Positions 6,352 through 58,601 of a stretch of 64,000 nt of DNA are shown piece after piece. Both the position numbers and the translations under genes were made by a program. Every line of letters begins with the position of its first letter. Position 1 is the stretch's first letter. The notes beneath the pieces are model-generated. The model was given only the letters and a program-made list of their open reading frames with translations. It searched no databases and was not told where the DNA came from. This DNA comes from an uncultured Clostridia bacterium (GTDB taxonomy: Bacteria; Bacillota; DTU014): positions 37,895 through 101,894 of the forward strand of contig FIZI01000005.1 of the NCBI GenBank assembly GCA_900016865.1, in the 5' to 3' direction.

Positions 6352-6640
6352 CTTCTGTCATACCCCTTCCGCGATCACCGACAAATGTGCGCAAATACAG
6401 CAAAACCTGTTTTCAAATCCCTTAAGGTATTATATCCACAGGCCCTTTGCTATAGAGCCCGGTGCATGGACAGTAGTGTCATTCTACCTGTACGCTGCAT
6501 TTCCTGCACTTGGCGACAATCCTGGAGCCGACAGAGTCTGGCCCTTGGCCTATATACACTATGATGGGTTAGCGCAATACAGCACCAACCCATCTGAATT
6601 ATACCACACTTGAGAACGGCAGTGCTTTGGATCTGGATGG

Positions 6641-6770
6641 CTCCACATGTATATAGCATCTGATTTGCGTATATGGGTAAATGTAAACGACGAGAAAAAA
6701 TCTCGTCGTATGTTGGACACCGCATACGGGTTCGATGTACTACTAGTGCAACTGCATCCAATATATGCAA
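6641..6770. repeat. copy 1 of a ~125-nt conserved intergenic element (candidate sRNA/REP-like repeat)
   Basis: About 75% identical to 51361-51485 and, as reverse complement, to 15364-15484. Shared blocks are ctccacatRtatat, gtatatgg, aaacgacgagaaaaaatc, accgcatacg and tgcatccaatat. A perfect hairpin acgacgaga-aaaaa-tctcgtcgt is present. Confidence 0.6.
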
Positions 6771-6843
6771 ATCACATCTGTGCAGGTTTATCTCTCGACT
6801 CCTACTCGCTATTCAGTCCGTGATTCTGGCTCCGTGAGCTGTC

Positions 6844-7734
6844 TCATTTGCTGTGCGCCACATCAGGTCTAGCCACCAGCTGGGCCTTTAGCGACGAGAC
6901 CAATGCCCCAACGGCCTCGAGGGCTTCTCGCTCGCCCCCATTGCCGCCCTTGCAAACCTTGTCAGAGATCGTACTCACGATAACGCTTCCGACTATGACC
7001 GCGTCAGCAAGAGCACCGGCTTTTGCTGCTGTGAGTGGATCGCCGACGCCAAACCCCACTGCCACAGGGATGTCCGTCCTGGCTCTCACTCTGCCGACCA
7101 AGTCAGTCACCTCAGCCGGCAATTCGGCTCTGACACCTGTTACACCAGTTGTTGATACACAGTATACGAACCCCGATCCTCCTTTGAGTATCGCTTCAAC
7201 CCTGCGGTCGTCACATGTAGGAGAGACCATTGGGATCAGGGAAATCGCTCCGGGCCTCTTGGCCGCGGAGGTGATTCGCTCAAGCGGATCCTGTATCAAA
7301 TGCCTTTCCTCTACAGGGAGATCAGGTACTACTAGTCCGTCAATTCCTACTCTTAGGCAGTCCTCTAGGAATCTGTCTATGCCGTACCTATAGAGGGTGT
7401 TGATGTAGACAAGCAGGACCAGAGGATTGGAGTAGCCTTCAGACCGGACCCTAGAGACTGCTTCAAATACGTCCCGTGTTTTCATTCCGCTCAGTATTGC
7501 CTGAGTATTGGCATTCTGAATGACCGGGCCGTCTGCCAGTGGGTCAGAAAATGGAACACCGAGTTCAACAACATCTGACCCGGCATCAAACATCCGCTTT
7601 ATCACCTCTACCGTGAAGTCGACTGATGGATATCCGGCAGTGACAAAGGTGATCAACGCCTTCTCGCCGTTTTGCAAACCTGCACGGATATGCTCTTCGA
7701 TCCTGGATCTCGTTAATTGCAGGCGCGTCTTCAT
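6844..7734 (-). CDS. trpA: tryptophan synthase alpha chain
   Basis: [25 protein letters not shown] motif. It is the last gene of the trp operon and overlaps the trpB stop by 4 nt. Confidence 0.95.
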
Positions 7735-15242: not shown

Positions 15243-15363
15243 ACCCTGCCTTATCTGTCCGATCTGCAGCAGTCATTACGTCAAGTATACATGAACAAAA
15301 AAACTGTGTCCACGAGACCCAAACCACAGTTTGCGCAAAGGGATTGACGCGACCCCCAAATCA

Positions 15364-15484
15364 TGGATCCACTTATACTGATGATATTCTCAACACGTAG
15401 GCGAAGTACAGCACAAGACGAGATTTTTCCTCGTCATTTGCATGTGACCATATACGTACACCAGACCTAATGCATATGGAGCCC
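15364..15484. repeat. copy 3 (inverted orientation) of the ~125-nt intergenic element
   Basis: The plus strand here (gacgagatttttcctcgtcatttgcatgtgaccatatacgtacaccagacctaatgcatatggagcc) aligns to the reverse complement of copies 1 and 2. Confidence 0.55.
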
Positions 15485-15709
15485 TCCAGACTTAATGAGG
15501 CAGCACCGACTTCGGATTCCTCGAATCCAGTGTCAGCACTGGATTCGCTATTCGTCGCGTAGCTCGACACAAAGCTCAACACACGCTCCGTGTACATAAA
15601 AAAACCCTCGGTCTCAGGCACAGGGGCTGGCGTGAACATCTATCTAAAGACGCTTGACAGCGTGTTGTAGTCGCATAGAGTCCCCTCTTACATCTGCGGG
15701 ATAGTGGGG

Positions 15710-15859
15710 TTACTTCACTATCCCGACAGAGAAGAGGCCCAGTCTGCGTCGTCTATCCTCGCGGACTTCCTGATAGGACTTACGAGTCAAGTCACCCGCG
15801 CACTTCTTGCAGTACTCGGCAAATGAGAAATTTCTCTCCTTGCAGTCTGGACAAATCAT
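15710..15859 (-). CDS. small zinc-ribbon protein (49 aa, CPDC...CKKC, basic C-terminus)
   Basis: Not in the ORF track (<60 aa). Minus-strand ATG 15859 is preceded by GGGAGGTGA at 6-nt spacing. Translation: MICPDCKERNFSFAEYCKKCAGDLTRKSYQEVREDRRRRLGLFSVGIVK. Confidence 0.5.
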   Translation of the reverse strand: MICPDCKERNFSFAEYCKKCAGDLTRKSYQEVREDRRRRLGLFSVGIVK

Positions 15860-50385: not shown

Positions 50386-51258
50386 TTACTCCTTGTCCTT
50401 GCCGGTTTTTTCGCTAGACTCTATGAGCTCATGCAATTTGGCAAGTGCAGCGGACAACCCGCCCACCTCATCGATCAAGCCTACCTCGACAGCCTCTGCA
50501 CCGACCATGACTGTACCTACATCCCGCACTAAGTCCCCTGTTCGAGTCATCAGCTCGCGGAACTTCTCTGCCTCGATTCGAGAATGTTTAGTGATAAAAC
50601 GTATCACCCTGTCCTGCATTTTGTCCAGATACTCATAGGTCTGAGGCACGCCTATGACAAGGCCTGCGAGTCTTATGGGATGGATGGTCATTGTAGCAGT
50701 GGGGGCAATAAACGAGTAGTCTGCGCTGACTGCTATCGGAATGGCGATCGAATGGCCTCCTCCAAGAACTAGTGACACTACCGGCTTTGAGAGGGTCACC
50801 AACAGTTCTGCGATGGCCAGCCCTGCGTCAACGTCCCCTCCTACGGTGTTCAAGACGACGAGGACGCCCTTTATGCTCGGGTCCTGCTCTATTGCCACCA
50901 GCTGGGGAATGATGTGTTCGTACTTGCTTGTCTTGTTTTGAGGAGGGAGGACCAAGTGTCCCTCGATCTGCCCGATTATGGTCACGCAGTGGATCTCAGA
51001 TCTGTGAGCTCCTAGAGGTGGCGTTTGGCCCATTTGTTTCACTGACTCCATGGTCGATTGGGCCGAGTAATCCCTGTTCTCCTCAACATTCTCTTTGCGC
51101 TCAGCATTGGATGCCCTGCTTCTGCCTGGATCTGCAGTGGCTCTCCTCCCGCCGATCTGCTCGGACAGAGCAGAATCCTTGCCTGATAGCAGCAACTGAG
51201 TGTGCATACTCTCCGGAGTCATGAAATCACCATCTTTCCATATATAAAAGGCGTACAC
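50386..51258 (-). CDS. ClpP-family protein (TepA/translocation-enhancing protein-like)
   Basis: ClpP fold with a GGGHSIAI Ser and a MTIHPI His region. The N-terminal extension is non-homologous; an alternative start is ATG 51222 (SD GGTGA). Confidence 0.7.
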
Positions 51259-51360
51259 AAATCAAACAGCCGTATGACTAGTATGCATTCAGCTCGCAGC
51301 TGCTATGCCACACATGCAAAGCCCAGCGCAGTACAGGGTTGTGAGTGGTTCTCTTAACGT

Positions 51361-51485
51361 CTCCACATATATAGGGTCCGGTGTACGTATATGGTCGAAT
51401 GCAAACGACGAGAAAAAATCGCATCGTTTGTTAGATACCGCATACGAGTCGAGTGCACTATAGGTGCAGGTGCATCCAATATTTG
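51361..51485. repeat. copy 2 of the ~125-nt intergenic element
   Basis: Aligns base-for-base with 6641-6770 at roughly 75% identity, including the hairpin region and the tgcatccaatat end block. Confidence 0.6.
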
Positions 51486-51640
51486 GGGTAGGTGTCAGTC
51501 GCATCCACGGCCCATGTCCACACTTCACTTGACAATCAGCAGTCGGTTTGGTTCAATTACAGCGGGTGGACATCGTGGGCGGGTTGCTCCGCAGGTCTAC
51601 CGAGTTTACGAGACCCACTCCGGGATAGAAAGGAGCCGCC

Positions 51641-51813: not shown

Positions 51814-51853
51814 GGCCACGGCAGGTTTGACCGCCGTGGCCTTTGCTTGTTTG
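51814..51853 (+). terminator. leader attenuator terminator upstream of ABC-F gene
   Basis: GGCCACGGC-aggtttgacc-GCCGTGGCC followed by TTTGCTTGTTTG, ~40 nt before ATG 51894. Confidence 0.65.
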
Positions 51854-51893
51854 CGAGACTATTTTGCGCTCACAGCCTTGGGGGTGGACGTCA

Positions 51894-53528
51894 ATGCTAT
51901 TGAGCTGTAACCGGATTCGGAAGCAATATGACGGGATCGAAATACTGAAAGGCATCGATCTCGATATCGCGTTTGGTGAAAGGATCGGTCTGGTCGGACC
52001 CAACGGGGCTGGCAAGACCACTCTCATGCAAGCCATTGCTCACGAGGTGTCGATTGACGATGGAGATATCACCTTCTGGCTGCCTCGAACGAAAATAGGA
52101 TATCTGCGCCAGTCTGTCGGAGCCTCGCGTTTCTCTGAAGGATACCGCCTCATCACAGTGACCCGCAGACTCGAGTCGGGCAAGACCATAGTCGAACCGC
52201 CAGCCGCAGATACTGATGAGCTTCGTGAGCTGCTGAAGATCTCGAGTCAGTTAGGCATCGGGTATTTAGACGAGTGGAGTGCACAGCACATCAACGGCCT
52301 CAGTGGAGGAGAGCGAGCAAAGCTTGCACTGGCAAGGATCTGGTCGGCTCAGCCTGATCTCTTGTTGCTCGATGAGCCCACCAATCATATGGACCTCAAC
52401 GGCATAGACTGGCTTATCGATCAGCTCAGACAGTACACAGGCGCGGTCCTTGTAATCTCACATGACCGATATTTTCTTGATCAGGTTGTATGCAGGATCG
52501 TAGAAATCGATGACGGCAAAGCTGAGAGCTACAGCGGCAACTACTCCTTCTATAGAGAAGAGAGGGCAAGAATTCGAGCAGCCCAGCTAAGACAGTATGA
52601 AGAAGCAAAGAGGCAGGAGAAACGCTTAGAAGAGGACGTTTTGCGCACCAAGCAATGGGCGGCCAAGGCTCACAGGGAGGCAGGCAAAAAGTCGGAGATA
52701 AGGTCGGCAAAGGTCGGCGACAGAGCCCGAGCAAAGCGGATCGATAGGCAGGCCAAAGCAAAGGTCAAGCGGCTCGAACGGCACAGGGCAAGAGCGCCGA
52801 GAAAACCAAAGGACGACCCGAATATTCGCTTTCAGATCAAGAGCGCAGAGAAACACGGCAGGCGAATGATCTACGCCAAGGGGATCTCCAAGGAGTACTC
52901 GGGCAGGGCCTTGTTTAGAGACAGTAGTTTCTACATCCTCAGAGGTGACAAAGTCGGATTGCTTGGCAAAAACGGCTGCGGCAAGACAACCCTCCTTAAA
53001 ATCATCCTGGGAGAAGAAACTCCTGATGAGGGCGAGGTCTGGATCAGTCCATCTGCGTGCATCGGATACCTCGCTCAGGGAGATCCGCTGTCAGGCGCAG
53101 ATGGATCGACGCTGGATGTTCTCGGCCTATCGAGTAGCGTGCTCGCGTCAAAGGCAAGGACCTTGCTCGCACAGATGGGTATCGGAGAGGATCTGGTTCA
53201 TAAGCCCGTCAGCGTCCTCAGTGCGGGCGAAAGGACCAAAGTGGAGATAGCGAGACTGATCATCAACCAGGCAAACCTTCTCCTCCTCGACGAGCCAACC
53301 AATCACCTGGACATCTATGCTAGAGAGCAACTCGAAGCGGCGCTAGTCGCCTATGACGGAACCATAATCATGGCTTCTCACGACAGGCGCATGCTAGAGT
53401 CGGTCTGCAACCGAATCCTCGTATTCGAAGACGGGCAGATACGACCTATGAGAGAAGAGGCCGATCCACCCGACGTAGACATAGAGTGGTGCTTTAGCAG
53501 CGACGACATAGAGCTCGATCTGCCCTAG
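51894..53528 (+). CDS. ABC-F family ATPase (two ABC domains, no TMD; ARE/translation-factor type)
   Basis: Two Walker A motifs (GPNGAGKTT, GKNGCGKTT), two LSGGE signatures and a ~80-aa Lys/Arg-rich interdomain linker. ATG 51894 has a GGGGGTGGA SD. Confidence 0.85.
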   Translation: MLLSCNRIRKQYDGIEILKGIDLDIAFGERIGLVGPNGAGKTTLMQAIAHEVSIDDGDITFWLPRTKIGYLRQSVGASRFSEGYRLITVTRRLESGKTIVEPPAADTDELRELLKISSQLGIGYLDEWSAQHINGLSGGERAKLALARIWSAQPDLLLLDEPTNHMDLNGIDWLIDQLRQYTGAVLVISHDRYFLDQVVCRIVEIDDGKAESYSGNYSFYREERARIRAAQLRQYEEAKRQEKRLEEDVLRTKQWAAKAHREAGKKSEIRSAKVGDRARAKRIDRQAKAKVKRLERHRARAPRKPKDDPNIRFQIKSAEKHGRRMIYAKGISKEYSGRALFRDSSFYILRGDKVGLLGKNGCGKTTLLKIILGEETPDEGEVWISPSACIGYLAQGDPLSGADGSTLDVLGLSSSVLASKARTLLAQMGIGEDLVHKPVSVLSAGERTKVEIARLIINQANLLLLDEPTNHLDIYAREQLEAALVAYDGTIIMASHDRRMLESVCNRILVFEDGQIRPMREEADPPDVDIEWCFSSDDIELDLP

Positions 53529-58523: not shown

Positions 58524-58552
58524 ATTCTACCACAGCAAGTGCATGCGGTCAA
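58524..58552 (-). promoter_or_regulatory. promoter of T-box leader (TTGACC-17-TAGAAT, extended TG)
   Basis: Minus strand TTGACC (58547-58552 rc), a 17-nt spacer and TAGAAT (58524-58529 rc) with an upstream TG. Confidence 0.5.
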
Positions 58553-58601
58553 CGGATGTGCTTGCGCTGATAATGCACCGGAGTCGTCCTCAGGATGCCC
58601 T

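Follow-up and report, generated by a model that had tools for sequence, protein, structure and literature searches.

The 64,000-nucleotide stretch of DNA analysed here (the window) was found to contain three copies of a dispersed repeat, of which 12 distinct copies, 100-280 nt in length, could be recovered in total (three in the window and nine elsewhere). All 12 copies are intergenic and their orientation to the flanking genes is mixed. From sequence comparison, this is probably a lineage-specific dispersed intergenic repeat, with a non-autonomous mobile element as the most likely origin. It would have spread by way of a hairpin-forming core, a feature which may be recognised in trans by an enzyme (transposase or recombinase) whose gene lies elsewhere, and its copies would persist today as mostly neutral passengers. 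Likely side effects would include spurious ORF calls, the addition of a hairpin with a U-rich tail after trpA and the provision of substrates for recombination between copies. No partner transposase for the repeat was identified in the ~227 kb of related sequence examined. An earlier, sequence-only reading of this DNA had proposed either a MITE-like repeat or a candidate sRNA. The first of these proposals is supported by the multiple copies, their intergenic position, two empty sites, mosaic ends and a partial tandem duplication at one locus, while the sRNA proposal is not supported.

Copies of the repeat and their surroundings

The three stretches of the window that had been grouped as a family are true homologues, being recovered with nhmmer E-values of 1e-40 to 1e-51 (about 1e-40 for each with a profile built from the three), and the orientations originally given (copies 1 and 2 alike, copy 3 inverted) agree with those reported by nhmmer. 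No fourth full copy was found by nhmmer in the 64-kb window. The coordinates first given to the element proved too short, as the homology between copy 1 and the copy on contig L026 spans 6630 to 6843. The boundaries of the window copies were taken from a 12-copy nhmmer profile, and the features are as follows.

6622-6785, plus strand: copy 1, nhmmer span (E 1.6e-43)
6630-6843, plus strand: copy 1 in its long form, a core of ~140 nt (6630-6775) extended at its 3' end by ~70 nt
6668-6728, plus strand: central imperfect palindrome of copy 1, 61 nt, with outer arms CGTATATGG and CCGCATACG
15331-15500, minus strand: copy 3 (nhmmer E 4.7e-44)
51353-51507, plus strand: copy 2 (nhmmer E 3.4e-44)
58551-58587, minus strand: possible remnant of the element's 3' part, 37 nt (nhmmer E 0.0019, borderline)
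L016, L026, L028, L031, L032, L033 and L034: further copies c4 to c11 (c7 being two tandem partial units)

The match at 58551-58587 may be a relic copy or else a chance similarity. It sits just upstream of a promoter-like site (TTGACC-17-TAGAAT).

Within a 78-nt ungapped core, copies 1 and 2 share 77% identity, copies 1 and 3 share 71% and copies 2 and 3 share 69%. The sequence blocks which had been listed as common to the three are exact in copies 1 and 2 and only approximate in copy 3. Identity within the core across all of the copies ranges from 69 to 88%, by which the copies are judged to be old.

The gene context described in the sequence-only reading was confirmed at each of the three sites. 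Copy 1 is located between trpA and the DUF2007-accD genes, and the 3' limit of its long form abuts the trpA stop codon (6844-6846). Copy 2 lies in the spacer of two divergent genes, one of the ClpP family (50386-51258, minus strand) and one for an ABC-F protein (51843-53528, plus strand), both assigned by Pfam. Copy 3 has the terminator of an sORF for a 49-aa zinc-ribbon protein on one side and the promoter of the malic-enzyme gene on the other. The gene content of the window is that of a core chromosome (the trp operon with TRAP, accDA, valS, tig-clpP-clpX-lon, RNR, PFOR and opp), and no transposase or phage gene was found among the annotated genes of the 64 kb.

Other features were observed in the same regions. 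A leader of ~240 nt (window 6352-6608, minus strand) separates an extended -10 promoter (TGTGGTATAAT, 6598-6608) from the DUF2007-accD-accA operon. This leader contains a hairpin (GATGGGTT...AACCCATC, 6563-6594), is conserved in three species (the window, L022:2170-2402 and L023:10870-11057) and had no Rfam match in the window; it could be a candidate cis-regulatory RNA for the acetyl-CoA carboxylase genes. The zinc-ribbon sORF (49 aa, MICPDCKE...CKKC; 15710-15859, minus strand) lies downstream of valS and has its own conserved promoter (TGTATAATG), and a structured leader that is conserved in three species, with a hairpin and a terminator following, the whole region extending upstream to about 16110. 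A TRAP gene (trp RNA-binding attenuation protein, PF02081; 13617-13880, minus strand) was identified directly upstream of trpE, which suggests that the trp operon is under Bacillus-type TRAP control in this uncultured lineage.

The further copies come from an uncultured, spore-forming Bacillota lineage of anaerobic digesters, represented by related metagenome contigs and MAGs. Scanning metagenome contigs with a sequence pattern returned eight loci, only two of them true copies, and provided the fourth copy (L016:1836-1952). As gene callers were seen to place ORFs on the element, its translation was used as a protein query, and 15 clusters annotated as 'hypothetical protein' matched the profile at E <= 0.001. 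The contigs of the matched clusters yielded copies on L026, L031, L032 (two), L033 and L034, plus a partial tandem pair on L028. One of the two L032 copies was unselected, having been met in the flank of L032. With three copies in 64 kb and this single unselected copy in ~57 kb of flanks, we infer, as a rough estimate, tens of copies per genome. Scans of genome contigs with the DNA pattern and with TrpA recovered no close relative.

Outside the window, the copies have as neighbours kinase and DUF2619 genes, tRNA genes, lepA and spoIIP, comEA, rpmE and an AAA_21 gene, and no function common to the neighbouring genes was apparent. The copy at L031:2700-2900 is directly upstream of a TTGACA-17-TATAAT promoter driving tRNA genes, and a 90-aa 'gene' call on the same contig extends from the repeat into tRNA sequence. 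The host is considered to be a spore former because SASP, SpoIVA and SpoIIP genes are present in the loci. The window TrpA and an ORF over a c8-like copy are both encoded on one contig of 2,434,840 bp, the longest of the contigs concerned. Many contigs from anaerobic digesters, and MAGs labelled 'Bacillota bacterium', encode a TrpA identical to that of the window, one of the TrpA-identical contigs being linked by its LFRM01 accession to a biogas MAG set (Campanaro et al., 2016; PMC4736482).

Empty sites, element ends and recombination

Insertion is indicated by relatives in which sites occupied in the window are empty. At the trpA/DUF2007 site the element is missing from L022 and L023-25, and the flanking terminator and promoter are kept. 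This TGnTATAAT promoter, which serves the DUF2007-accDA operon and is conserved in the relatives, is separated by ~17 nt from the trpA stop codon in the relatives (TrpA 82% and 68% identical) compared with ~245 nt in the window species, where the insert amounts to ~225 nt. At the sORF/malic-enzyme site, L035 and L036 are without the element and retain both the sORF terminator and the -35/-10 malic-enzyme promoter. Terminator and promoter are ~34 nt apart in these relatives (malic enzyme 83% and 80% identical) compared with ~285 nt in the window species, copy 3 belonging to an insert of ~245 nt (about 15313-15573) which is absent from the relatives. No copy of the element was found in ~40 kb of sequence from the empty-site relatives, and no lengthening of the TrpA C-terminus by the insertion was evident.

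Copies 1 and 3 are identical in 10 of the 10 conspecific contigs that represent the strains sampled, and hence give no sign of recent mobility. As the strains are invariant, it is the comparison between species alone that points to insertion, and from it we infer that copies entered terminator-to-promoter gaps of housekeeping operons in either orientation.

The unit itself is modular. All-against-all comparison of the copies with 300 nt on either side revealed a core of ~140 nt common to the copies, to which a 3' module of ~70 nt is added in c1, c5 (L026) and partly c9 (L032), and a 5' module of 70-95 nt in c5, c8 and c9. Homology between copy 1 and the L026 copy extends by BLAST over 213 nt (82%), the longest homology between copies is ~280 nt, and the full unit reaches up to ~280 nt in L026. 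The ends are mosaic, the 5' and 3' extensions differing from copy to copy. At L028:10033-10268, two partial copies (profile positions 6-130 and 39-166) are arranged in direct tandem. The pair is located directly upstream of the AAA_21 gene and overlaps its start.

No terminal inverted repeats common to the copies were found, inverted-repeat scans giving copy-specific and differing arms, and all-against-all BLAST with 300 nt on either side detected no homology in inverted orientation between the ends. Long TIRs, considered from the 5' flank of copy 3 and the reverse complement of the 3' extension of copy 1 (words CACGGAGC and GAATAGCGA), were unsupported by BLAST, and a 20-nt arm pair (ATCTGATTTGCGTATATGGG and CCAATATATGCAAATCACAT) was rejected as a family feature, being confined to copy 1. 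Alignments of filled with empty sites revealed no target-site duplication, with flanks that are ~20% diverged and element ends that are fuzzy.

A hybrid contig was also encountered. L027:1240-2140 matches the window without mismatch over 379 nt, covering the DUF2007 leader and the 5' half of copy 1, and then passes, by one crossover within 10 shared bases inside ACACCGCATA, into the 3' half of the L026 copy and its right flank (DUF2619 gene). Either repeat copies have recombined in a strain or the contig is an assembly chimera. Logan assemblies are built with k=31. The longest identical run between copy 1 and the L026 copy, the sequences being compared by reading, is 27 nt, and with k=31 assumed an assembly chimera therefore seems unlikely. 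Recombination between copies is weakly indicated by this one 2-kb contig; if the hybrid junction is real, it would be an example of repeat-mediated rearrangement.

Alternative readings of the conserved core

It is unlikely that the element represents a multi-copy family of structured sRNAs, trans-acting or cis-antisense, produced from its forward strand. Single copies do fold well. The perfect 9-bp hairpin claimed for copy 1 is present at 6687-6709 (ACGACGAGA-AAAAA-TCTCGTCGT), and the folding energy of copy 1 is -73.8 kcal/mol with a forward-strand z of -4.8, the reverse strand giving z = -3.8; the copy 2 hairpin carries two mismatches (TCGCATCGT). Over 11 copies the helices are 78-92% paired, the central ones at 92% and 85.5% compared with 22-54% in slid controls, and an outer helix is weakly paired (68% of cells). 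However, pairing and covariation across the copies do not exceed those obtained by shuffling. A 30-pair structure has 83.2% of cells paired across the 11 copies compared with 83.7% in shuffles, its covariation score is 0.182 compared with 0.187 (306 of 500 shuffles reaching the observed value), and individual helices, when tested separately, were also no better than shuffles. RNAalifold of the 11 copies returned no compensatory pairs and a consensus of only -5.1 kcal/mol.

The covarying hairpin of the sequence-only reading rests on a misalignment, the copy 1 counterpart of gagtgcactataggtgcaggtgcatcc being gatgtactactagtgcaactgcatcc, which is of equal length. The small 3' helix claimed to covary is 78.2% paired in the 11 copies and 77.3% in shuffles. 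In about half of the family CTCGTC has become CACATC in the 3' arm with GACGAG unaltered in the 5' arm, which leaves uncompensated mismatches. Selection on RNA structure, as had been suggested, is thus not supported, given that compensatory changes are not above shuffles; covariation no better than chance had itself been named in advance as evidence against the proposal, and this is what the shuffle comparison gave. The palindrome derives from the ancestral unit and is undergoing uncompensated decay.

Other properties expected of an sRNA gene were also looked for. Consensus scans detected neither a promoter nor an intrinsic terminator common to the copies, the ends vary among copies, partial tandem copies occur at one locus, and orthologous sites in relatives are without the element. 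An Rfam search, which had been proposed as a check, gave nothing at either gathering or permissive thresholds, with 0 matches in the window at the gathering score and, around four copies, chance-level matches only when the limit was relaxed to E<=10 or E<=1. On the other side, forward-strand G-U pairs number 44 compared with 23 A-C mismatches. Eight of these G-U pairs are supplied by a single conserved column (43/91, U-G in 8 of 11 copies), and the excess is therefore only a weak hint, which leaves some room for a constraint on one strand. Conservation is also higher in the centre of the core than in its flanks, the two arms and the block between them being the best kept, and the A-rich loop is well conserved.

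For the same core to be a functional module, either as a forward-strand regulatory sRNA or as the ssDNA hairpin substrate of a putative transposase or recombinase that works without TIRs or target duplications, is improbable in our estimation. The G-U strand bias and the better-kept central block would be compatible with either version.

A DNA-level regulatory module near promoters, for example one in which a global regulator or nucleoid protein would bind paired sites at the arms CGTATATGG and CCGCATACG, is very unlikely. It would fit the position of the copies near promoters or terminators and the fact that conservation is highest in the two arms and the intervening block. However, the distance and orientation of the copies to adjacent promoters are inconsistent, the genes beside them have unrelated functions (acc, malic enzyme, ABC-F, tRNA, rpmE, lepA and comEA), and the same promoters occur in relatives without the element. 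A cis-regulatory leader was likewise rejected, as neither strand is consistently upstream of a gene, and the conserved blocks, when inspected by eye, fitted neither sigma-54 or sporulation-sigma sites nor a cre box.

There is little to recommend the view that the copies are fragments of a longer IS element or prophage, a possibility which the sequence-only reading had named as one that would tell against it. Some copies do share extra 5' and 3' modules, by which the full unit (up to ~280 nt in L026) exceeds the 125 nt originally proposed. However, homology between copies never rises above that ~280 nt, no transposase, integrase or phage gene was found beside the copies in the window or the fetched loci, a scan of viral contigs for the element had no match, and the neighbourhood is one of housekeeping genes.

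The ORFs overlapping the element had been described as lying in different frames and not conserved. This was found to be incorrect, since one and the same frame (RIW..NDEKKS..LDTAY) stays open across the core of all copies, including c2, c4 and c9, which were found without ORF calls. Gene callers annotate this frame (58 aa in copy 1 and 74-88 aa in copy 3), and together with the 15 clusters matching the profile this is what would be expected if the copies were genes for small proteins (~35-60 aa) sharing the motif RIW.NANDEKKS.R.LDTAY. However, no third-position excess is present: variable columns by codon position number 15/15/16 (12:11:10 in four copies), entropy by codon position in 10 copies is 0.58/0.45/0.52, and the synonymous fraction of the open frame (0.187) is not raised relative to the remaining frames (0.181 and 0.23). 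Neither start nor stop codons are conserved, and the subfamilies are divided by a 2-nt indel immediately upstream of the core. Copy 2 has no nearby ATG, the ATG of copy 3 opens a 2-codon ORF, and an annotated 84-aa ORF in L028 crosses both partial copies in two different frames. By these substitution and frame patterns the copies are judged not to be protein-coding, and a protein gene family hardly merits further consideration.

Comparison with known bacterial repeats

The repeat is ordinary in kind, its novelty being one of membership only, and it opens no new biological question. Its main value is in annotation, as many MAGs carry 'hypothetical protein' calls (34-118 aa) that stem from it. 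It can also mislead sRNA searches, may break or scramble assemblies of a common digester organism, and provides a marker for strain typing in the lineage.

By analogy, this dispersed and probably mobile repeat appears to act like the ERIC/MITE class of small bacterial repeats. A more distant likeness is to REP/REPIN sequences, which are mobilised by RAYT transposases. These too are dispersed extragenic palindromes with a hairpin that is probably what a trans-acting enzyme recognises. However, REPs are 20-40 nt in length, G+C-rich and usually found as inverted doublets, whereas the repeat is 140-280 nt, has an A-rich loop and occurs as single copies or in direct partial tandem, which places it outside the REP/REPIN-RAYT group.

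Bacterial MITEs include Correia/NEMIS of Neisseria, RUP of Streptococcus pneumoniae and bcr1 of the Bacillus cereus group. The repeat resembles them in being short (<~500 bp), non-coding and multi-copy, as seen in its 12 copies, and in having subfamilies. It is similar also in its intergenic insertion beside promoters and terminators and in its capacity to create spurious ORFs and to serve as a recombination substrate. Insertion polymorphism at orthologous sites is seen between species, with none among the 10 conspecific contigs. However, the TIRs and target-site duplications that define MITEs were looked for and not found, the duplications in alignments with diverged flanks and fuzzy element ends, and the repeat would fall outside the class in its strict sense (TIR, TSD); we know of no parent IS for it.

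The ERIC or IRU sequences of Enterobacteria are imperfect palindromes of about 127 bp. The repeat differs from them in belonging to another phylum, so that the likeness is one of architecture and resemblance in sequence is not expected, and in having a clear palindrome only in its central ~61 nt, with weak outer pairing (68% of cells). It otherwise shares with ERIC a length of ~125-140 nt (~125 nt as an imperfect palindrome), a strictly intergenic location in both orientations, the lack of coding capacity and of a known dedicated transposase, variants with extra internal or terminal segments, and presence or absence at orthologous sites of related species.
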